The position numbers and the translations under genes are program-made. This document shows positions 17,736 through 29,983 of a stretch of DNA of 64,000 nt, piece by piece. The notes under the pieces are model-generated. The model was not told where the DNA came from. It did not search any database and saw only the letters and a list, made by a program, of their open reading frames with translations. This DNA is from Candidatus Omnitrophota bacterium (lineage in GTDB: Bacteria > Ratteibacteria > UBA8468 > B48-G9 > JAFGKM01): contig JAMWDI010000001.1 in the NCBI GenBank assembly GCA_023819375.1, positions 107,685-171,684 of the forward strand, in the 5' to 3' direction. The first letter of the stretch is position 1; each line of letters starts with the position of its first letter.

Positions 17736-18980
17736 ATGGAGGAAAGAAAATTAATAATAAGATTGAGTGAAATTTTATTATTTATAGTATTTACTACTGT
17801 TCTATTTTATGCTTTTGCTTTTTCTGAGCCTTTAAAACCATTGAAATTAATTTTAAAAGAGATGTTGCCCTCCTTAGGAATTACTCTGTTTTTTCTTTTT
17901 TTATGTTTTAGAACTATTGAATACTATCATAATCAGATTTTAAAACAAAAAAAATTGAATGAGGAATTAAACGATTCTTTATTCAAATTAAGTTCAGATT
18001 TAAAAATTGAGAAACTGCTTCAAAATTCACTTGAAATTCTAATGAAGTTTTACGAAGGAGATATTGGAATATTATCAATAATTGGGGATGATCTAAAAAA
18101 ATTTGTTTCGACAGATGTAATTACAATAAACATTAATAATAAGTCAAATATTGAAAGGTTTGAAAAAAATAAAAATTGTGTTTATGTGACAATTTCGCCA
18201 GATAAAATTTCGGTTAAAGAAGAAAATTTAATAAAAAAATTAATTAATGAGTATGGATTACAAAGTTGTATGGGTATAATTGTTTTTCCCATTTATACAG
18301 AAAAAGTGACAAAAGCAATAGGTATTATAGGGATTTACAAGAAGAAAAAGAAAGAAATTTTAAGAGATATTAGTAAAATCAAAATAATTAGTGAAGTTTT
18401 TATGCAACATTTAAATCTTGAAATTGAAAATTCTCTTTTAAATGAAAAATTGAATTATGCTTCAATAACAGATGCTTTAACAGAAGTTTATAACAGAAGA
18501 TATTTTAATATAAGATTGAAAGAAGAATTTGCAAGAGCAAAAAGAGAGGGATATCCTGTCTCAATAATGATTTCAGATCTTGATAATTTCAAAAAATATG
18601 TTGATACTTATGGCCATCCTATGGGAGATATTATTTTAAAAGAACTTGCCAATTTACTTAAATATTCTATCAGAGAAACAGACATACTTTGTAGATTTGG
18701 TGGAGATGAATTCGCTTATATTCTACCTTTTACTCCAAGTAAAGAAGCCCAGATAGTTGCAGAAAGATTAAAATCAAATGTAGAAAACTATAGATTTTTG
18801 AAAGAATATATAAATGATAAAGATGTAAAATTAACATTAAGCATTGGAATTGCAACTTTTCCAGAACATGGAAATACTGAAGAAGAAATTTTGTCAAAAG
18901 CAGATAATGCTCTTTTTCAAGCAAAAAATATAGGAAAAAATTTAGTTATAGTTTATAGTGAAAATGGAGGAACAAAATGA
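17736..18980 (+). CDS. Diguanylate cyclase (GGDEF domain) with N-terminal membrane/sensor region
   Basis: 414 aa. N-terminal TM helices, central sensor-like region, C-terminal GGDEF domain with RFGGDEF active-site motif. Confidence 0.85.
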   Translation: MEERKLIIRLSEILLFIVFTTVLFYAFAFSEPLKPLKLILKEMLPSLGITLFFLFLCFRTIEYYHNQILKQKKLNEELNDSLFKLSSDLKIEKLLQNSLEILMKFYEGDIGILSIIGDDLKKFVSTDVITININNKSNIERFEKNKNCVYVTISPDKISVKEENLIKKLINEYGLQSCMGIIVFPIYTEKVTKAIGIIGIYKKKKKEILRDISKIKIISEVFMQHLNLEIENSLLNEKLNYASITDALTEVYNRRYFNIRLKEEFARAKREGYPVSIMISDLDNFKKYVDTYGHPMGDIILKELANLLKYSIRETDILCRFGGDEFAYILPFTPSKEAQIVAERLKSNVENYRFLKEYINDKDVKLTLSIGIATFPEHGNTEEEILSKADNALFQAKNIGKNLVIVYSENGGTK

Positions 18981-19541: not shown

Positions 19542-20450
19542 ATGGTTTCTTATCTTATGTTAGAGTTGTCTGAAATTGAAAAACGTTCTTTTTTGCTTTT
19601 TGAAAAGTTGAAAAATTGTAATTTATGTGGTTGGGAATGTAATATTGATAGATATTCTAAAAAATCTCATTGCAGAAGTGGGATTGAACTTAAAATTTCA
19701 AGTTATGGACCACATTTTGGAGAAGAAAGGATAATTTCTGGAAAAAGAGGATCAGGAACCATATTTTTCACAAATTGCTCATTAAAATGTGTTTACTGTC
19801 AAAATTATGATATAAGCCAACTTGGAAATGGATATGTAATTTCAGAAGAGGATCTTTCAAATATAATGCTTAAATTACAAAATTTAGGATGTCATAATAT
19901 TAATCTTGTCACACCAACTCATTTTTTGCCTCAGATTTTAAAGGGAATTTTTCTTGCAATAAAAAAGGGCTTGAAAATTCCATTTGTGTATAATTGTGGC
20001 GGATATGAAAATGTAGAAACACTAAAAATTCTGGATGGTATAATTGATATTTATATGCCAGATGCAAAATATGGAGATAACGAAAAAGGTAAAAAATACT
20101 CTGGAATCCCTGATTATTGGGATAAATGCAAAAGGGCCTTGATTGAAATGAAAAGACAAGTTGGAGATATAGTTTTAAATGAAGAAAAAGTTGCAATAAA
20201 AGGACTTTTAATAAGACATCTTATTCTTCCAAATGATATTTCCTCAACAGAAAAAGTTTTAAAATTTATTAAAGAAGAACTTGGTGAAAATACCTGGATA
20301 AGTTTACTAAGTCAATACCATCCTGAATATAAAGCCTATATGTATCCAGAAATAGATAGAAGAATTACTTACGAAGAATATTATAAATCTGTTGAAATTG
20401 TTGAAAAAATTGGTTTGAAAAATGTTATTTATCAGGGATTTTTAATATGA
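19542..20450 (+). CDS. Radical SAM protein, PflX/COG1313-like (putative activating enzyme)
   Basis: 302 aa. CxxxCxxC radical SAM motif (CSLKCVYCQN), N-terminal Cys cluster (CNLCGWECN), ISSYGPHFGEE block. Confidence 0.55.
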   Translation: MVSYLMLELSEIEKRSFLLFEKLKNCNLCGWECNIDRYSKKSHCRSGIELKISSYGPHFGEERIISGKRGSGTIFFTNCSLKCVYCQNYDISQLGNGYVISEEDLSNIMLKLQNLGCHNINLVTPTHFLPQILKGIFLAIKKGLKIPFVYNCGGYENVETLKILDGIIDIYMPDAKYGDNEKGKKYSGIPDYWDKCKRALIEMKRQVGDIVLNEEKVAIKGLLIRHLILPNDISSTEKVLKFIKEELGENTWISLLSQYHPEYKAYMYPEIDRRITYEEYYKSVEIVEKIGLKNVIYQGFLI

Positions 20451-21118
20451 AAAAAAGCATAATTATAAGTTTTGAAGGTATTGATGGTTGTGGAAAAACG
20501 ACAATTGTTAAAAAATTTTATAAATATTTAAAAAAGAAAAAATTAGATGCAATAGTTCTTCACGAACCAGGTTCTACGCATGTTGGAGAAAAAATAAGAA
20601 GAATTTTACTTAATAAAAATATAAGCATAAACAAATACTGTGAATTATTTCTATATCTGGCAAGTAGAATACAATTAATTGAAGAAAAAATTAAAAAATA
20701 TTTTGACAAAAATAAAATTATTATTTTAGATAGATACATTGATTCTACTTTTGCCTATCAAGGATATGGAAGAAAAATCCCATTGAAATTTATTGAAAAA
20801 ATACACAAAAAACTTATTTCTCCAAAATTTATTCCTGATATTACATTTTTAATTGATGAGAAACCAGAAAACTTAATAAAAATTCTTAAAAACAAAAAGG
20901 CTGATAGAATAGAAAAGGAATCTATTGAATTTCAGAAAAGAGTAAGAAAGGGGTATTTAAAACTTGCAACGAAAAACAAAAGGATCAAAATAATAAGAAG
21001 AGAAGATGAAGAAACAACTTTTAAAAAAGTTTTAAAGGAATGGGAGACTTTCTTAAATGAAAACAGAGGAAATAAAAAAATTTTTTCTAAAATCAAAGGA
21101 AAAAAACAGAATATTTAA
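20447..21118 (+). CDS. tmk: Thymidylate kinase
   Basis: 223 aa. P-loop FEGIDGCGKTT, DRY-like block LDRYIDS, lid region. Confidence 0.85.
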   Translation: MKKSIIISFEGIDGCGKTTIVKKFYKYLKKKKLDAIVLHEPGSTHVGEKIRRILLNKNISINKYCELFLYLASRIQLIEEKIKKYFDKNKIIILDRYIDSTFAYQGYGRKIPLKFIEKIHKKLISPKFIPDITFLIDEKPENLIKILKNKKADRIEKESIEFQKRVRKGYLKLATKNKRIKIIRREDEETTFKKVLKEWETFLNENRGNKKIFSKIKGKKQNI

Positions 21119-21908
21119 TGCATATATAATTTATGGGGGGAACAAAAAAGAAAGAGAAGAAATTGCTCTTTTTTTTGCTGGTGTTTTGAATTGTAAAAAT
21201 GAAAATTACTGTGAAAGTTGTGAAAATTGTAAAAAAATAAAAAATAAAAGCCATCCAGACATAAGATGGGTTATTCCAGAAAAAAGCATTCTTTCAATTG
21301 ATGATGTGAGGGAAATCAAAAAAGATCTTTTTATTCAGCCATATTCAGGTAAATATAAAATTTATATTTTTCAAATTGAATATATAAAAGAAGAAGCAAG
21401 CAGTGCTTTTTTGAAAATTTTAGAAGAACCACCTCCTTATGGAATTTTAATTCTTCTTGTTCCAAATATAAATTTCCTACTTCCCACAATTATTTCAAGA
21501 TGTTTTAAAATTTATTTAAATTATAAATTACCAGATTATAATAAAGAAATGGAAAAGGCAAAAGAAGAATTCTGGGAACTGATAAAAGATGTTGAAAATA
21601 AAAATTTCTTTGATTTTTTCAAAAAAATAGATTTTATGAGCAAAAACAAAGAAAGAGAAGAAGTGGAAAAATGGATAGAGGATATATTGTATTACATAAG
21701 AGATTTATTTTTACAACTGAATAATTTCCCTCAAAGTTTTTTAATAGATAAAAATTTAAAGAATGAAAAACATTGGACCTTTGAAATTTCTTTAATAGAA
21801 AAGATATGGAATATAAAACAAAGAATAAGGTATAATATAAACGTAAAACTTGCACTGGAAAATATAGTATTTCAAGTTATTTTAAATAGTTTAAAATTTG
21901 ACAAATAA
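21057..21908 (+). CDS. holB: DNA polymerase III delta-prime subunit
   Basis: 283 aa. AAA+-like N-terminus (NAYIIYGG), Cys-rich zinc module (CKNENYCESCENC), typical position after tmk. Overlaps tmk by 62 nt; start uncertain. Confidence 0.7.
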   Translation: MKTEEIKKFFLKSKEKNRIFNAYIIYGGNKKEREEIALFFAGVLNCKNENYCESCENCKKIKNKSHPDIRWVIPEKSILSIDDVREIKKDLFIQPYSGKYKIYIFQIEYIKEEASSAFLKILEEPPPYGILILLVPNINFLLPTIISRCFKIYLNYKLPDYNKEMEKAKEEFWELIKDVENKNFFDFFKKIDFMSKNKEREEVEKWIEDILYYIRDLFLQLNNFPQSFLIDKNLKNEKHWTFEISLIEKIWNIKQRIRYNINVKLALENIVFQVILNSLKFDK

Positions 21909-21911
21909 AAT

Positions 21912-21995
21912 GCCGAAGTGGCGGAATGGAAGACGCGCCAGGTTCAGGACCTGGTGAGGTAAAACCTCGTAGGGGTTCAAATCCCCTCTTCGGCA
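21912..21995 (+). tRNA. tRNA-Leu (anticodon CAG), class II with long variable arm
   Basis: Manual cloverleaf: acceptor GCCGAAG/CTTCGGC, D-stem GCG/CGC, anticodon stem CCAGG/CCTGG with loop TTCAGGA (anticodon CAG, G37), variable arm TGAGGTAAAACCTCGTA, T-arm AGGGG-TTCAAAT-CCCCT, discriminator A. No encoded 3' CCA. Confidence 0.8.
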
Positions 21996-22006
21996 ATAAT
22001 TAATTT

Positions 22007-23389
22007 CTAACAATCTTCAAAAGTAAAACCTCTTTTGAAAATTTTTAAAGTTTTCTTTACGACTTCGCCATCATAAAGTATATTAGAATTATTTTTTATT
22101 TCTTCCAATGCTCTTTCCAGTAAAAGTTTTGGTCTATAAGGTCTATGAGAACTCATTGCCTCAACAACATCTGCAACAGACAGAATTCTTGATTCCAAAA
22201 TAATCTCTTCACCCTTCAATCCAAACGGATATCCACTACCATTTAATCTTTCATGATGTTGAATAATAATCTTAGCGATATCCCATGGAAATTCTATATT
22301 TTTAACGATATTAGCACCATATTCAGGATGCATTTTTATAAAATCCCATTCAATATTATTTAATTTACCAGGTTTGGCAAGAATATCTGTTGGGATATAA
22401 ATTTTTCCTATATCATGTAACAAAGAAACAATCTTCATTCCTTCAATCAAACTCCCTGAAAATCCTAATTCTTTTGCAATTTCTACTGACAATTTTGCCA
22501 CTCTTTTTTGATGATTAAAAGTATATGGATCCCTTTGTGTTAACGTTTCAGACAAAGCCATCACTGCTTGATTTAACATCCTTTTTGTACTATTTATAGC
22601 CTCCCTCAAATTTTCAATCATCATTTTCCTTTCGGTAACATCTCTAAAACATAATAGAATACCTTCTTCATTAATAAAATTAATTTTTTTCCCTATTGTT
22701 TCTATAAAAAATCTTGCTCCTTTACTATCTCTTATTTCATGTTCTATAAAATAACCACTTTTATTTTTATTTACAAGTTTCAGATTCTGCTCAAATTCTT
22801 CTTTATTTATAATAAAATCAAAAAGATTTTTTCCGATAAAGTTTTCAACTTTATCATACCCAAATAAATTTGCTCCTATAAAATTTGAAAAAAGAACCCA
22901 GCCTTCTTTATCAATAACGACTATTCCATCAAGAAGTGTTTCTGTTAAAATCTTATATTTCTCTTCAGATTCTTTTATTTTCAAAAAAGAAACTTTTTCC
23001 TCTGTAATATCTCTTACTATTGCTACTCTTAAAGTTTTATCTTTATATTTAATATTCTTAACTTTAACCTTAAGAATAATTTCCAAGCCATCCTTTCTGG
23101 TACATCTTGTCTCAAATTCGCCTTCCTTTTCTTCTTTTAATATTTCCAACCAAAAATTTTTTTCACTTTCACTACATAAATCCCATATTTTTTTCCCAAT
23201 TATCTCATTTTTCTCATATCCAAAAATTTCTGCATATTTTTCATTGCAATATATAATTTCTCCTCTATAATTAATACTGAACCCCTCTCCAATCATCAAA
23301 CATATATTTTTCAAAATTTCATTATTTAAAAACCCCTTCTCTATTTCTTTTCTCAATATTTCTAACTCATCTTTATTATTCTTTTTCAT
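22007..23389 (-). CDS. PAS-domain sensor with HD-GYP domain (putative c-di-GMP phosphodiesterase)
   Basis: 460 aa. Two PAS-like regions, C-terminal HD domain (LLHDIGK) and HHERLNGSGYP HD-GYP signature. Confidence 0.8.
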   Translation of the reverse strand: MKKNNKDELEILRKEIEKGFLNNEILKNICLMIGEGFSINYRGEIIYCNEKYAEIFGYEKNEIIGKKIWDLCSESEKNFWLEILKEEKEGEFETRCTRKDGLEIILKVKVKNIKYKDKTLRVAIVRDITEEKVSFLKIKESEEKYKILTETLLDGIVVIDKEGWVLFSNFIGANLFGYDKVENFIGKNLFDFIINKEEFEQNLKLVNKNKSGYFIEHEIRDSKGARFFIETIGKKINFINEEGILLCFRDVTERKMMIENLREAINSTKRMLNQAVMALSETLTQRDPYTFNHQKRVAKLSVEIAKELGFSGSLIEGMKIVSLLHDIGKIYIPTDILAKPGKLNNIEWDFIKMHPEYGANIVKNIEFPWDIAKIIIQHHERLNGSGYPFGLKGEEIILESRILSVADVVEAMSSHRPYRPKLLLERALEEIKNNSNILYDGEVVKKTLKIFKRGFTFEDC

Positions 23390-23400
23390 TTTTGTAAAGA

Positions 23401-24345
23401 TTATATTTTAACATAATTGAAACTTGCATCAAACATATTTTCAAGTAAAAAACTGCTTATTGTTATTCCTCTAATTTCATTTATTTCAATTTCTTTTGGT
23501 ATTAAAATTTTAATTTCTTCATCCCTTTTTTCTTTTATAATTCCCAAAACTATATCCTCAAAAAATTTATTTTTTAAACAACATAGAAAACCTTTTAAAT
23601 CAATTTCAAAGACATCAGAAAATTTATTTAAATTCTTAAAATTTATCATTTTTATTGAAACTTCATTCAGTTTAATAATCAATTCTTTCAAGTTTTGAAA
23701 ATATTTACTAAATATTTTCTTTCTATAATTTGCTCTTTCTTCCATACTTTTTACAGGAATATTTTCTATTTTAATCCTTTCATATTTCATACCAGAATAC
23801 TTCAAAAATCTTACAATTTCTTCAAGTTCATTTTCTTTTTCAAGAAGAATAATAAAATCAGGTTTTAAAATTTCAATTTTATTAATTTTCAAAGATATTG
23901 CAAGTTTATCTCTTATATACCCAGTTGTATCAACTAAAATTTTCCCATTTTTATTTTCAAGATAATTGTTTATTTTAATCACACCTGTCAAAAATTCATT
24001 AATTGAAAAAGATGGTGCAATTATTCCTGTAAAATATAATTTTTCTGGATTTAAATAAAAATCATCTCCAATTTTTTCTTTCAATTTTGCATAACCAATT
24101 GTTGTTGGAGGACCAACATGAGATTGTCCTATATCACAATCAAAAATATATACTTCCTCTTTTTCAAATAAAAAATTTGCAATATTTTTTATTAAAGTTG
24201 TTTTTCCTGTATCACTTCCACCTATAAACATTATTTTTTTTATTTCTTTTTTAAGAAATATTTCAAATTCTTCTTTTTTTAAAACTTCAAATTCTTCCAT
24301 TTTGCAACTAAATACCCTATTATTTTGTAAATTAATTTTCCACAC
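23401..24345 (-). CDS. Clp1/Grc3-like P-loop polynucleotide kinase family protein
   Basis: 314 aa. Walker A GGSDTGKTT followed by FDCDIGQSHVGPPTTIGYA, matching the Clp1 D-x-D-x-GQ 'clasp'. Start uncertain; overlaps the agmatinase gene. Confidence 0.5.
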   Translation of the reverse strand: MWKINLQNNRVFSCKMEEFEVLKKEEFEIFLKKEIKKIMFIGGSDTGKTTLIKNIANFLFEKEEVYIFDCDIGQSHVGPPTTIGYAKLKEKIGDDFYLNPEKLYFTGIIAPSFSINEFLTGVIKINNYLENKNGKILVDTTGYIRDKLAISLKINKIEILKPDFIILLEKENELEEIVRFLKYSGMKYERIKIENIPVKSMEERANYRKKIFSKYFQNLKELIIKLNEVSIKMINFKNLNKFSDVFEIDLKGFLCCLKNKFFEDIVLGIIKEKRDEEIKILIPKEIEINEIRGITISSFLLENMFDASFNYVKI

Positions 24346-25172
24346 ATTAAAGAAGAGGAAGTAAATATCTTTGAGGGAGAAAGTTCTACAAGATCAAAAC
24401 CACAAATTTCAATGTCTTTCCTAAAAATTAAATTTTTCAAAAATTCATTTGTTTCCTCCCAGTAAAAGCCCCCAGGTTCAGGTGTTCCAGTTTCTGGAAT
24501 TAGTGATGGATCAAAAAAATCAACGTCAATTGAAAGATAATATTTTCCAGACGGTATCTCATTTATTATCTTCTCCATCCATTTTTCTTTTTTCATTTGA
24601 TAAGAATAATAAATTTTTATTTTTCTATTACCTTTTAAAAACTCAAATTCCTCTTTACTTATACTTCTAACCCCTAAAATGTAAAGACTGCAATTCTCTT
24701 CATAAATTCTTTTGTTAACACAGGCATGGGAATATTTTGTTCCATTATATTTTTCTCTTAAGTCAGAATGGGCATCAAGACATATATAATTTAAATCATT
24801 AAAATACCTTTTATATGCTCTGAATAATCCCAAAGTTATTGTGTGTTCTCCTCCAATTCCAATAACAAATTTATTTTTTTTCAAATAAGAAGATATTTTT
24901 TTTTCTATTTTCTTGATCATTTTCTCAGGAGAAGAAAAATCAATTTCAAGTTCGTCTTCAGTTTTTATCCCTATTTCATAAGGTTCAATTTCAAGTTCTT
25001 CATCAAAAAGTTCAAAATTTCTTGAAGAGTAAATTATACTGATAGGAGCAAATTTTGTTCCTGAATTACCAGTAAGTGTACATTCATATCCAATAGGAAA
25101 AATTATAAATTTTGCTTTTTCAAAAGACACTTCTGGTATAGAAAGAAAATTAAAAGGAATTTTGTTCTCCAT
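24279..25172 (-). CDS. speB: Agmatinase / arginase-family ureohydrolase
   Basis: 297 aa. Mn-binding motifs GGEHTIT, DAHSDLR, SIDVDFFDP. Confidence 0.75.
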   Translation of the reverse strand: MENKIPFNFLSIPEVSFEKAKFIIFPIGYECTLTGNSGTKFAPISIIYSSRNFELFDEELEIEPYEIGIKTEDELEIDFSSPEKMIKKIEKKISSYLKKNKFVIGIGGEHTITLGLFRAYKRYFNDLNYICLDAHSDLREKYNGTKYSHACVNKRIYEENCSLYILGVRSISKEEFEFLKGNRKIKIYYSYQMKKEKWMEKIINEIPSGKYYLSIDVDFFDPSLIPETGTPEPGGFYWEETNEFLKNLIFRKDIEICGFDLVELSPSKIFTSSSLMCGKLIYKIIGYLVAKWKNLKF

Positions 25173-25212
25173 TTTACTTTTATTTTTTTTATGTTAATAT
25201 TATACAATAAAT

Positions 25213-26880
25213 ATGGAAAGAAAAGAATTAGGACAGATTTTACTTGAAAAGGGTTTAATTACGCTTGAACAATTAAATGAAGCACTTGAATTACAAAATG
25301 AAACAAAAAAATTTCTGGGAGAAATACTTATTGAAAAAGGTTATATAAAAAAAGAAGATATCTGGCAAGCATTAACTGAACAAAAAAAAGCAGATTCTGT
25401 GTCTCTATCAAAACTAAAAGGTTTAAAGCCAGAAATTGTAAAAATTATAGATGAAAATATAGCAAGAAGGTTTATTTGTATTCCAATAGCAAAAGAAGAT
25501 GATATTTTGGTAGTTGCAATGAAAGATCCAGCCGATATAGTTGCAATAGATACTTTAAGAAGACTAACAGGATATAAAATTAAAGTAGTTAAAGGTGATG
25601 AAAAAGAAATAATTGAGTTTTTAGATAAATTTTTCTCTAGTTTTGACACTTTTCCAGAAACAATTTCAGAACTTGAAGAAATTTCAGAAGAAAAAGAAGA
25701 ATTAGACGTAGATCAACTTAAAGTTGCTGCTGAAGATGCACCTGTGATTAAATTTGTCAATTCTTTATTTGCAAATGCTATTGAAAAAAGAGCCACGGAT
25801 ATTCATCTTGAACCAGGTGAAAGAAATGTTTATATAAGATTCAGAATAGACGGTGTCCTTTATAATTTTACTTCACCTCCAAAAAGTTCATATCCTGCAA
25901 TTGTAACAAGAATTAAAATTTTATCAAATCTTGATATTGGAGAAAGAAGATTACCACAGGATGGAAGATTTAAGATAAAATTAAGAGAAAAAGAAGTTGA
26001 CGTAAGAGTTTCAACTCTACCTACTATTTATGGGGAAAAGGTAGTTTTAAGATTATTAGATAAAGAAAAACTTGTTTTAGATTTAGAAATGCTTGGATTT
26101 GAAAAAGAAGAATTAGAAAAATTCAAAAAAGCATTGAAAAGACCATATGGAATGATAATAGTAACAGGACCAACTGGAAGTGGGAAAACAACAACTTTGT
26201 ATTCTGGATTGAGTTTTATAAACACCCCTGAAAAAAATATAATTACAATTGAAGATCCTGTTGAATATCAACTTGAAGGAATAAATCAGGTTCAGGTTAA
26301 ACCTAAAATAGGATTAACATTTGCAAATGTATTAAGACATATTTTAAGACAGGACCCAGATGTAATTATGGTTGGCGAAATAAGAGATTTAGAAACTGCT
26401 CAAATAGCAATTCAAGCCTCTTTAACTGGACATCTTGTTATAACTACTTTACATACAAATGATACTGTATCTACAATTTCTAGACTTTATTATATGGGCG
26501 TAGAACCATATCTTATAGCAGACGCAGTGACTATTGTTATTTCACAAAGATTGGTAAGAAAAATTTGTAGTGAGTGCAAAATAATTGATAAGAAAGATAC
26601 AGAAACACTTAAAAATTTAGGATATAAAGAATTTATTGCATATAGAGGGAAAGGATGCTCTTTTTGTAATTACACAGGGTATTATGGAAGAATAGGAATT
26701 TTTGAAGTTTTAGAATTTACAGAAGGGATAAGAGAAATGATTCTTAATAAAAAAAGTGATGACGAAATACGGGATTATGCTATAAAACTTGGCATGAAAA
26801 CTTTAAAAGAATCTGCTATAAAAAAGGTCATTGATGGAATTACATCTCTTCCTGAAGCAATGACGGTAACAATTATATGA
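25213..26880 (+). CDS. pilB: Type IV pilus assembly ATPase PilB (GspE family)
   Basis: 555 aa. N-terminal T2SE_N domain, Walker A GPTGSGKTT, Asp and His boxes, C-terminal CxxC...CxxC tetracysteine. Confidence 0.9.
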   Translation: MERKELGQILLEKGLITLEQLNEALELQNETKKFLGEILIEKGYIKKEDIWQALTEQKKADSVSLSKLKGLKPEIVKIIDENIARRFICIPIAKEDDILVVAMKDPADIVAIDTLRRLTGYKIKVVKGDEKEIIEFLDKFFSSFDTFPETISELEEISEEKEELDVDQLKVAAEDAPVIKFVNSLFANAIEKRATDIHLEPGERNVYIRFRIDGVLYNFTSPPKSSYPAIVTRIKILSNLDIGERRLPQDGRFKIKLREKEVDVRVSTLPTIYGEKVVLRLLDKEKLVLDLEMLGFEKEELEKFKKALKRPYGMIIVTGPTGSGKTTTLYSGLSFINTPEKNIITIEDPVEYQLEGINQVQVKPKIGLTFANVLRHILRQDPDVIMVGEIRDLETAQIAIQASLTGHLVITTLHTNDTVSTISRLYYMGVEPYLIADAVTIVISQRLVRKICSECKIIDKKDTETLKNLGYKEFIAYRGKGCSFCNYTGYYGRIGIFEVLEFTEGIREMILNKKSDDEIRDYAIKLGMKTLKESAIKKVIDGITSLPEAMTVTII

Positions 26881-29213: not shown

Positions 29214-29588
29214 ATGAAAAAAAATAAAAAGAAAGGTTTTACTTTGATTGAATTGATGACAGTGGTAATTATTGTTGGAATTTTAGCGTCAGTTGCTGTT
29301 CCTCTTTATAGAGGACAAGTCAAAAGAGCAATGGCAGCAGAAGGAGCAGCATTACTTGGTTCTGTAAGAACTGCTGAAAGAGTCTATTATGCTGAACATG
29401 GAAAATATACAGATGATAAAACAAAACTGGGGATAGATACAACTGGAAACAAATATTTTAAAGATTATACGATTACACTTACAGGTGGAGGCACTGGATT
29501 TATCGCAACAACAACTGGAGAAGGAGATGCTGCAGGAATTACTGTATCCATTGACCAGGATGGAAATTTAACTTATTCTGGAATTTAA
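29214..29588 (+). CDS. pilA: Type IV major pilin (copy 1)
   Basis: 124 aa. Leader MKKNKKKG then FTLIELMTVVIIVGILA (class III signal, Glu at +5); small Gly/Thr-rich C-terminal domain. Confidence 0.85.
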   Translation: MKKNKKKGFTLIELMTVVIIVGILASVAVPLYRGQVKRAMAAEGAALLGSVRTAERVYYAEHGKYTDDKTKLGIDTTGNKYFKDYTITLTGGGTGFIATTTGEGDAAGITVSIDQDGNLTYSGI

Positions 29589-29608: not shown

Positions 29609-29983
29609 ATGAAAAAAAACAAAAAGAAAGGTTTTACTTTAATTGAGTTGATGACAGTGGTAATTATTGTTGGAATTCTTGCTGCTATTGCTGTTCCTCT
29701 TTATAGAAGCAATGTCAAAAGAGCAATGGCAGCAGAAGGAGCAGCATTACTTGGTTCTGTAAGAACTGCTGAAAGAGTCTATTATGCTGAACATGGAAAA
29801 TATACAGATGATAAAACAAAACTGGCAGTAGATACAAGTGGAAACAAATATTTTAAAGATTATACGATTACACTTACAGGTGGAGGCACTGGATTTGTCG
29901 CAACAACAACTGGAGAAGGAGATGCTGCAGGAATTACTGTATCCATTGACCAGGATGGAAATTTAACTTATTCTGGAATTTAG
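29609..29983 (+). CDS. pilA: Type IV major pilin (copy 2, tandem paralogue)
   Basis: 124 aa, same architecture as copy 1, own AGGGAGGG Shine-Dalgarno, TAG stop instead of TAA. Confidence 0.85.
   Translation: MKKNKKKGFTLIELMTVVIIVGILAAIAVPLYRSNVKRAMAAEGAALLGSVRTAERVYYAEHGKYTDDKTKLAVDTSGNKYFKDYTITLTGGGTGFVATTTGEGDAAGITVSIDQDGNLTYSGI

Follow-up and report, generated by a model that had tools for sequence, protein, structure and literature searches.

The question raised by this locus is whether a short open reading frame in a bacterial genome, starting inside the end of an agmatinase gene, encodes a polynucleotide kinase of the Clp1 type, and what such an enzyme would do there. The gene lies on the minus strand at positions 23401..24300 of the window (the whole 64-kb stretch of DNA that was analysed) and encodes 299 aa, running from an ATG at 24300 to a TAA stop at 23401-23403. 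A longer version in the open reading frame list, with a GTG start, spans 23401-24345 (314 aa). Homologue N-termini (MEKFE...) support the ATG, and genes called independently on three further contigs likewise yield a 299-aa product with a 22-nt overlap with agmatinase; on these grounds we take ATG 24300 to be the true start. NCBI holds a 100% identical 299-aa protein, 'MAG: hypothetical protein NC926_06080 [Candidatus Omnitrophica bacterium]', which identifies the host as a bacterium, and the GC content of this Omnitrophota MAG is low (25-30%). The identical gene also occurs in a sample series covered by runs SRR21619491/97/98. Close homologues in NCBI already carry the name 'polynucleotide 5'-hydroxyl-kinase' or 'Clp1/GlmU family protein'.

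In terms of family membership, the profile search proposed by the original prediction was run with Pfam and returned CLP1_P (PF16575) over the whole profile (1-188/188), with E=2.6e-31 and 109.3 bits versus a gathering score of 26.6, a match far beyond chance. All other P-loop families scored far worse, each below its own Pfam cut-off, and the search thus placed the protein in the predicted family rather than in a different P-loop family. Among NCBIfam models none reached its curated cut-off, the best being VirB11 (16.7 bits vs 250). When a profile built from 30 homologues was compared with solved structures, C. elegans Clp1 (E=2.8e-18) and human CLP1 (7.5e-18) came first, followed by NOL9 and Grc3; the best single-sequence match in the PDB was NOL9 (E 1.3e-5). 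The AF2 model (pLDDT 86.3, pTM 0.86) gave a consistent picture in Foldseek searches of the PDB, where the top 22 matches were all Clp1/Grc3/NOL9 structures (E 9e-17 to 2e-10, TMq 0.62-0.76) and the next family, the GPN/SRP54 GTPases, appeared only at E >=6e-4 and TM 0.26-0.33. The resemblance extends beyond the kinase domain to a C-terminal all-beta domain (about residues 203-290; 23431..23694, minus strand) with AF2 strands E205-285 at a pLDDT of mostly 72-95. Specifically, the profile can be aligned with C. elegans Clp1 as far as chain residue 421, and Foldseek gives a TMq of 0.75 across 299 columns.

The catalytic motifs agree with this assignment. The predicted Walker A motif GGSDTGKTT was found at residues 27-35 (24196..24222, minus strand), where it fits GxxxxGK[S/T] and corresponds in the alignment to GPTDVGKTT in C. 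elegans Clp1; G27, D30, G32, K33 and T35 are invariant in the 30 homologues. The second region originally quoted, FDCDIGQSHVGPPTTIGYA (residues 53-71; 24088-24144, minus strand), does contain the invariant D-x-D-x-GQ motif reported for it, but the name 'clasp' given to that motif was wrong: in Clp1 proteins D-x-D-x-GQ is Walker B ([D/E]hhQ), whereas the clasp is [T/S/L]xGW (PMC6777427). The Walker B sequence here is FDCDIGQS (residues 53-60; 24121..24144, minus strand), in which D54, D56, G58, Q59 and S60 are invariant; its aligned counterparts are VELDVGQN in C. elegans Clp1 and VELDVGQG in human CLP1. The clasp proper is DTTGY (residues 124-128; 23917..23931, minus strand), located within 'VDTTGYI' some 70 residues past Walker B; its aligned counterpart in both C. 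elegans and human Clp1 is INTCGW. Conservation is complete at D124 and G127 and at least 90% at T125 and T126, while the Trp position is occupied by Tyr128 in the window protein and by Y, F, L or M among bacterial homologues, so that it is non-aromatic in some. In C. elegans Clp1 this Trp stacks on the 5' base. Judged from these alignments, the clasp is kept in position, not to the letter of the [T/S/L]xGW consensus. Finally, the lid RANYR (23722..23736, minus strand) supplies R189 and R193, both invariant and aligned with the arginines of IRSKMR (C. elegans) and FRRECR (human), with an aligned spacing of R-x3-R (RxxxxR in the family description).

Overall, the four catalytic motifs show little or no variation in 30 homologues down to 26% identity, and profile, structure and motif evidence concur in bearing out the prediction of a Clp1-like P-loop protein in a bacterium. 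This conservation also bears on whether the protein might be a catalytically inactive nucleotide-binding scaffold. Degenerate family members of this kind do exist, as exemplified by S. cerevisiae Clp1 (PMC6777427). Yeast Clp1, however, became inactive by mutation of its kinase motifs, whereas those of the window protein are all intact and strongly conserved, which renders a scaffold extremely improbable.

With respect to known systems, the best structural matches are eukaryotic Clp1 proteins, namely C. elegans Clp1 (4ohv) and human CLP1 in TSEN (8hmy_E), with E values of 9e-17 and 1e-15 and TMq 0.73-0.75. These share all four motifs with the window protein, and both the kinase and C-terminal domains align. 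Nonetheless, identity in the structural alignment is ~14%, the clasp carries Tyr in place of Trp, and the ~100-residue N-terminal domain of C. elegans Clp1, which that enzyme needs for ATP binding (PMC6777427), is missing, with the alignment beginning at chain residue 103. Given this starting point and the presence of only 26 residues before the P-loop, the protein belongs to the prokaryotic type and falls outside eukaryotic Clp1 proper; the TSEN and cleavage-factor partners of eukaryotic Clp1 are not known from bacteria. Grc3/NOL9, a kinase that works alongside the nuclease Las1 to process ITS2 of pre-rRNA, has a PNK domain in common with the window protein, and its structures occupy Foldseek ranks 7-20. 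Grc3/NOL9 proteins are 600-750 aa long, however, and carry extra N- and C-terminal Las1-binding domains; no Las1-like HEPN nuclease was seen beside clp1 in the window or in the related loci examined. Archaeal Clp1 proteins of the P. horikoshii type (Methanosarcinales and Asgard MAG proteins P0098, P0156, P0169 and P0191) are 31-35% identical in the kinase domain, a value matched by most bacterial relatives, but are 399-437 aa long with an N-terminal extension of ~90 residues that is not found here.

The closest correspondence, by description, is with the bacterial Clp1 proteins of Saito et al. (2019), with which the window protein shares a bacterial host, a single-copy gene, short length and conserved Walker A and Walker B motifs, along with a clasp that is kept in position. 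Its 26 residues before the P-loop place it in their 'short N' class (<60 aa), and, as in bacterial Clp1 and Thermus scotoductus Clp1 (Ts-Clp1), the lid is recognisable and the eukaryote-type N-terminal domain is absent. One difference, again by description, is that Ts-Clp1 (~27 kDa) is reported to have neither an N- nor a C-terminal domain, whereas the window protein has the latter. The window protein most likely belongs, as an unremarkable case, to the bacterial branch already known within the Clp1 RNA/DNA 5'-kinase family, and the overlap with the agmatinase gene is the sole mildly unusual feature of its gene.

By analogy with these relatives, the open reading frame probably encodes a prokaryotic-type Clp1 family enzyme acting as an ATP-dependent polynucleotide 5'-hydroxyl kinase. 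On the model of C. elegans Clp1 and Ts-Clp1, ATP-Mg would be bound by the P-loop (K33/T34), while Walker B residues D56 and Q59 would position and deprotonate the 5'-OH of single-stranded RNA, or less well of DNA. The 5'-terminal nucleotide would be held by the clasp residues T126-G127-Y128, and the lid arginines R189 and R193 would stabilise the transition state, the predicted product being a 5'-monophosphate end. In the cell, such an enzyme may repair the 5'-OH ends that toxins or metal-independent RNases produce, after which the RNA would be open to 5'-P-dependent nucleases or religation.

Whether RNA is indeed the main substrate can be addressed from the assayed bacterial enzyme and from gene neighbourhoods. 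Ts-Clp1 (UniProt E8PQM6) is a 5'-kinase that prefers RNA over DNA, with a Km(ATP) of 2.5 uM and activity on ssRNA, dsRNA and, at higher enzyme dose, ssDNA (PMC6777427). Both P. horikoshii Clp1 (O57936) and T. scotoductus Clp1 also phosphorylate ssDNA (PMC6777427), which speaks for an alternative in which the enzyme is chiefly a DNA 5'-kinase that prepares nicked or broken DNA for ligation by putting back 5'-phosphates, with RNA not its target. The neighbourhoods of Pirellulales lend this reading some weight, as nine loci there encode, 1-2 kb upstream of clp1 and on its strand, a PHP-domain DNA polymerase of the PolX type. In these Planctomycetota loci, however, where the order is nitroreductase-clp1-RtcA with PolX upstream, the immediate downstream partner of clp1 is the RNA-end enzyme RtcA. 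This RNA 3'-phosphate cyclase (383 bits vs 352 for the NCBIfam equivalog) directly follows clp1 in 9 of 45 loci. Furthermore, DNA required >5-fold more Ts-Clp1 than RNA did (PMC6777427), and no DNA-repair gene adjoins clp1 in the window, and we therefore regard a primarily DNA-directed role as unlikely. Searches of the 64-kb window by tblastn with queries from related loci gave no match for RtcA, PHP hydrolase, PolX, NTPase_1, nitroreductase, ArgJ or ArgC, so that a repair pathway cannot be assembled from the window. The neighbours of clp1 there are metabolic and signalling genes, which say nothing positive about RNA. A PHP protein encoded downstream of clp1 in Aerophobetes was considered as a possible RNase AM-like 5'-3' exonuclease; it scored 42.9 bits vs 375 with the RNase RNM model and reached only the CehA/McbA metallohydrolase domain model.

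Turning to the neighbours themselves, the gene preceding clp1 (24279..25172, minus strand; 297 aa) is the first of its unit and encodes agmatinase (speB), as supported by TIGR01230 (213 bits vs an equivalog cut-off of 174.3), Pfam Arginase (E=3.4e-59) and the ureohydrolase motifs GGEH, DAHSD and SIDVDFFDP visible in the translation. Its 3' end overlaps the 5' end of clp1 at 24279..24300 (minus strand), the agmatinase stop TAA occupying 24279-24281 and the clp1 ATG being embedded in the Lys-Trp codons AAA TGG. The predicted overlap of at least 22 nt is thus exactly 22 nt from ATG 24300 (67 nt if counted from the GTG), and it probably couples translation of the two genes. The same AAATGG/AAGTGG arrangement occurs in loci L001-L005, with overlaps of 13-22 nt where a start was called, and gene calls give overlaps of 23 and 26 nt in L087 and L088.

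On the other side, a PAS-PAS-HD-GYP protein of 460 aa (22007..23389, minus strand; Pfam HD_5 E=1.2e-35, and PAS_9 in two stretches) is encoded beginning 11 nt past the clp1 stop, an order repeated in L001 and L003. It is probably the third gene of the agmatinase-clp1 transcription unit, and, with co-transcription judged from spacing only, the three genes likely form a single unit. A scan of 21800-25400 found no terminator-like sites, and a promoter scan was at background, with 26 promoter-like sites vs 22.3 expected. The single Rfam match in the whole window is a tRNA-Leu (CAG) at 21911-21996, and the operon is therefore accompanied by neither a riboswitch nor another RNA element.

How far does the link to agmatinase extend? 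Across 80 genome loci surveyed, it was present in five, all from the closest clade, and a family-wide linkage was accordingly rejected. The genes upstream of clp1 in the family as a whole are nitroreductase (16), arginase-family (5), ArgJ (4) and AFOR (3), followed by singletons. Pairing with putrescine synthesis is thus a trait of the Omnitrophota/Ratteibacteria clade and not of the Clp1 family. Deeper members of that clade have the order arginine decarboxylase-agmatinase-clp1, with a pyruvoyl arginine decarboxylase directly upstream of agmatinase in L005, L087 and L088; none is encoded in the 64-kb window. In other clades clp1 follows argC-argJ (gaps of -3 to +6 nt), follows amidohydrolases or lies between nitroreductase and RtcA, and its contexts further include adenine deaminase/amidohydrolase, nitroreductase and aldehyde oxidoreductase genes. 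The nitroreductase-clp1-RtcA, arginine decarboxylase-agmatinase-clp1 and argC-argJ-clp1 arrangements provide testable leads on the physiology of bacterial Clp1.

These arrangements also invite the reading that the protein serves arginine or polyamine metabolism and not nucleic acids, either as a kinase of small molecules or, as an NTPase of the SIMIBI type, in the maturation or regulation of agmatinase, a binuclear-metal enzyme. For the latter, the closest parallel would presumably be the HypB-like accessory NTPase of a Ni-dependent guanidine hydrolase. In keeping with such a role, the agmatinase-clp1 overlap is kept across 46% to 100% identity despite changing flanking genes, and the deeper members add the pyruvoyl decarboxylase to the cluster. 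The argC-argJ-clp1 loci tie clp1 to arginine elsewhere, their proteins grouping with the window clade in 0 of 100 bootstrap replicates, and the nearest folds after Clp1/Grc3/NOL9 are SIMIBI NTPases. Against this, the Walker B D/Q, clasp and lid arginines, which in Clp1 contact RNA and carry out 5'-OH transfer, are as invariant here as in the RtcA-linked clade. ArgJ, the neighbour in the argC-argJ-clp1 loci, is not known to be a metalloenzyme, the contexts elsewhere are heterogeneous, as would fit a gene riding at the end of assorted operons, and a gene overlap in itself hinders separation by rearrangement. A G3E/SIMIBI metallochaperone of the UreG/HypB/CobW type was rejected: no Cys or His is found among the invariant or at least 90% conserved columns, the NKxD motif expected of G3E metallochaperones is absent, and Pfam and NCBIfam scores are far below cut-offs. 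We thus consider a role outside nucleic acid metabolism very doubtful. Slightly less so, and still quite improbable, is that a Clp1-like kinase was recruited into arginine/polyamine metabolism, both in the Omnitrophota/Ratteibacteria clade and, as a separate event, in the argC-argJ-clp1 loci, to act on a non-nucleic-acid substrate, to service pathway enzymes or to couple polyamine supply to RNA 5'-end healing. Such a recruitment, if true, would be the first physiological role for a bacterial Clp1.

Returning to the favoured reading of a polynucleotide 5'-kinase, the family proves to be less rare in bacteria than the original prediction implied in describing it as mainly eukaryotic and archaeal. 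Clp1 has been catalogued in 144 bacterial species (Saito et al. 2019, PMC6777427), and the share of complete genomes with such genes was reported in 2019 as 0.9%. Our search found relatives in at least 523 species-representative genomes (523 confirmed among 600 pattern matches listed), from Omnitrophota, Planctomycetota, Nitrospirota, Thermodesulfobacteriota, Aerophobetes, Poribacteria and others, including phyla named by Saito et al. such as delta-proteobacterial lineages. At 50% identity the whole family falls into about 1,600 clusters. Among uncultured bacterial phyla, Clp1-type genes are commoner than the 0.9% figure of 2019 suggests, which weakens the case for a rare archaeal transfer as an explanation. 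With bacterial Clp1 kinases catalogued, one assayed and close relatives already annotated, the window protein is of little consequence for the family as such. The archaeal origin suggested for it found no support: mean identity to five archaeal sequences (31%) is about that to other bacteria (30%), and in a rough NJ tree that included these five sequences the window clade grouped with them in 0 of 100 bootstrap replicates, so that a recent archaeal origin is not supported. Its nearest neighbours were bacterial, the sister group being a Caldisericota-type clade in 58 replicates or Vulcanimicrobiota in 27.

Matching Pfam CLP1_P along its entire profile (1-188/188, E=2.6e-31), the 299-residue window protein emerged from the profile search suggested alongside the original prediction as a bacterial homologue of the Clp1 family, in keeping with that prediction. 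Assignment to a different P-loop family was considered and rejected, as all other P-loop families score under their Pfam cut-offs and are far poorer structural matches. Specifically, a profile built from 30 homologues and searched against solved structures found C. elegans Clp1 best (E=2.8e-18, with an alignment spanning the kinase and C-terminal domains) and human CLP1 second (E=7.5e-18), followed by NOL9 and Grc3. When a confident AlphaFold2 model on the same 30-homologue alignment (pLDDT 86.3, pTM 0.86) was compared with the PDB by Foldseek, Clp1, Grc3 and NOL9 alone filled the first 22 ranks (E 9e-17 to 2e-10, TMq 0.62-0.76), and the next family, GPN/SRP54 GTPases, appeared at E 6e-4 or worse (TM <=0.33).

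In terms of catalytic motifs, both of the peptides originally quoted are present on the minus strand, GGSDTGKTT at residues 27-35 (24196-24222) and FDCDIGQSHVGPPTTIGYA at residues 53-71 (24088-24144). The DxDxGQ element had been labeled the clasp, a name that has to be corrected, as Saito et al. (2019, PMC6777427) define this element as Walker B. The protein contains Walker A (G27...K33-T34-T35), Walker B (D54-x-D56-x-G58-Q59), a clasp (T126-G127-Y128) with Tyr at the canonical Trp position, which is F, L or M in other bacterial members, and lid residues R189 and R193. Across the 30 homologues, to 26% identity, G27, G32, K33, T35, D54, D56, G58, Q59, D124, G127, R189 and R193 are invariant, and these residues align with their C. 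elegans and human Clp1 counterparts. With respect to domain architecture, the eukaryote-type N-terminal domain of Clp1 is absent, just 26 residues preceding the P-loop, whereas the β-rich C-terminal domain (about residues 203-290) aligns with that of Clp1. The latter distinguishes the window protein from the characterized bacterial enzyme, Thermus scotoductus Clp1 (Ts-Clp1), described as being without a C-terminal domain.

Ts-Clp1 phosphorylates ssRNA and dsRNA, and also ssDNA at higher enzyme dose, with a Km(ATP) of 2.5 μM (PMC6777427). Family, fold and motifs are shown here, and we infer kinase activity from Ts-Clp1 and the conserved catalytic residues; the best-supported reading is that the window protein would be a catalytically competent prokaryotic Clp1-type polynucleotide 5′-OH kinase. 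An inactive scaffold comparable to yeast Clp1 is highly improbable given the intact motifs, and a kinase acting on DNA ends is unlikely. As a 5′-OH kinase, the protein may, speculatively, serve in the cell to heal 5′-OH RNA ends, which would then enter 5′-P-dependent decay or ligation.

Saito et al. (2019, PMC6777427) had already counted 144 bacterial species with Clp1 family proteins; of the 1,543 complete bacterial genomes, 14 carried one. The rarity originally implied was overstated, and among uncultured bacteria we find the family to be not uncommon: at least 523 confirmed relatives occur among the first 600 pattern matches listed (one genome per species), and 1.84 billion cluster representatives, searched exhaustively with HMMER, yielded 1,635 matches at E<=1e-3 and 1,009 at E<=1e-10. 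Relatives among the matches listed fall in Omnitrophota, Ratteibacteria, Planctomycetota, Nitrospirota, Thermodesulfobacteriota, Actinomycetota, Aerophobetes, Poribacteria, Latescibacterota, Caldisericota and others. Close homologues are named ‘polynucleotide 5′-hydroxyl-kinase’ or ‘Clp1/GlmU family protein’ at NCBI and ‘GRC3/NOL9’ at JGI; the window protein itself is a newly noted, previously unannotated member of this known bacterial family. In the literature searched, nothing beyond the papers of the Saito group deals with what bacterial Clp1 does physiologically.

The window DNA is bacterial: NCBI records the identical protein, as hypothetical, from a Candidatus Omnitrophica MAG. Genes for type IV pili, holB, tmk and GGDEF genes are the neighbors, and the GC content is 25-30%. 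Archaeal Clp1 proteins (Methanosarcinales, Asgard MAGs) are 399-437 aa long with an N-terminal extension and, at 31-35% identity over the trimmed alignment, are no closer to the window protein than other bacterial proteins (mean 30%, maximum 37%). In a crude neighbor-joining (NJ) analysis of 80 sequences, five of them archaeal, rooted on eukaryotic Clp1, the window protein and its closest relatives (loci L001-L005) were monophyletic in 100/100 bootstrap replicates and grouped with archaea in 0/100; the sister was a Caldisericota-type clade in 58/100 and Vulcanimicrobiota in 27/100, and deep nodes lack resolution. Given so crude a method and no more than five archaeal sequences, this phylogeny, proposed earlier as a check on archaeal origin, argues solely against recent direct acquisition from archaea by the window lineage.

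The clp1 gene was listed as a GTG-start ORF of 314 aa (24345 to 23401, minus strand) behind a 297-aa agmatinase ORF (24279-25172, minus strand). All 29 homologue N-termini align a MEK/MEE... start with the ATG at 24300, and in three other assemblies, where the protein is identical, independent gene calls agree on 299 aa with an overlap of 22 nt; we therefore place clp1 at 23401-24300 (minus strand). The overlap with the agmatinase stop (TAA, 24279-24281), predicted to be at least 22 nt, is exactly 22 nt from this ATG. The upstream gene, with a TIGR01230 score of 213 bits (cut-off 174.3) and visible GGEH, DAHSD and SIDVDFFDP motifs, encodes a bona fide agmatinase. Downstream, a gene for a PAS-PAS-HD-GYP protein begins 11 nt past the clp1 stop; judging by spacing and the conserved overlap alone, clp1 probably shares a transcript with agmatinase and is probably coupled to it in translation, with this signaling gene following. 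Overlaps are frequent in the window (62 nt between tmk and holB at 21057-21118, plus strand, and several 4-nt ATGA-type overlaps at 18977-18980, 20447-20450 and 26877-26880), so that the 22-nt overlap fits a compact AT-rich genome and is unexceptional in itself.

Only 5/80 genome loci carry agmatinase directly upstream of clp1, each of them belonging to the closest clade (51-70% identity), and the link is a trait of this clade, not of the whole family. The junction is conserved there, with the clp1 start codon inside agmatinase Lys-Trp codons (AAATGG; AAGTGG in L004) and overlaps of 13-22 nt in L001-L005 where the start was called; gene calls at L087 and L088 give 23 and 26 nt. In the deeper-branching L005 (4598-6855), L087 (2593-4855) and L088 (470-2836), at 46-52% identity and with differing flanking genes, the order pyruvoyl arginine decarboxylase-agmatinase-clp1 (pdaD-speB-clp1) reads as a complete arginine-to-putrescine operon with clp1 last. 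Separately, argC-argJ-clp1 with gaps of -3 to +6 nt occurs in Aerophobetes and relatives (L006, L010, L017, L027, L084, L086); none of 100 NJ bootstrap replicates joined the two groups, and no argB was seen in these loci. This recurrence may reflect chance (mixed operons of small genomes) or a real link, and deserves mention as a small lead. That the protein works in arginine/polyamine metabolism, for instance as an NTPase that acts like a chaperone on the metalloenzyme agmatinase, is improbable, as the RNA-kinase residues are invariant and there is neither a conserved Cys/His nor an NKxD motif.

Elsewhere, clp1 follows adenine deaminase and amidohydrolase genes in a Caldisericota-type clade, and a nitroreductase gene lies upstream in 16/56 loci. 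RtcA, the RNA 3′-phosphate cyclase, is directly downstream in 9/45 loci, and this association is the sole context supporting RNA-end chemistry. In Planctomycetota (L011, L012, L020, L024, L028, L036, L045, L049, L054, L079) a conserved cluster, PolX(PHP) ... NTPase_1(THEP1-like)-SagB-like nitroreductase-clp1-RtcA, looks like an undescribed nucleic-acid end-healing module of Pirellulales and Phycisphaerae; our literature search found no paper describing it. The 64-kb window contains no gene for RtcA, PolX, PHP hydrolase, NTPase_1, nitroreductase, ArgJ, ArgC or arginine decarboxylase. In Aerophobetes-type loci, a PHP-domain metallohydrolase of ~298 aa lies directly 3′ of clp1 (L006:4864-5760, L084:5874-6770), with a CehA/McbA domain and weak similarity to RNase RNM/AM and 3′,5′-bisphosphate nucleotidase. 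Were it a 5′-3′ exonuclease, the two genes would form a kinase and exonuclease pair of interest, resembling Grc3-Rat1; so weak an annotation does not allow such a claim.

Within the window, a GGDEF diguanylate cyclase gene (17736-18980, plus strand) and the PAS-PAS-HD-GYP phosphodiesterase gene (22007-23389, minus strand) lie <5 kb apart, flanking a radical-SAM/tmk/holB block. HD-GYP genes recur near clp1 in L001, L003, L006, L014 and L084, probably by chance, because many paralogues are probable in these genomes. Rfam and ARAGORN searches across the 64 kb found nothing besides a tRNA-Leu(CAG) gene (21911-21996, plus strand), just past holB and convergent with the HD-GYP gene. Between pilC and pilM are two tandem, ~93% identical genes for 124-aa type IV pilins with an N_methyl leader (29214-29588 and 29609-29983, plus strand); L081, a related contig with a 100% identical clp1 protein, has a single pilin gene at the corresponding place, a difference reflecting either copy-number variation or assembly collapse.
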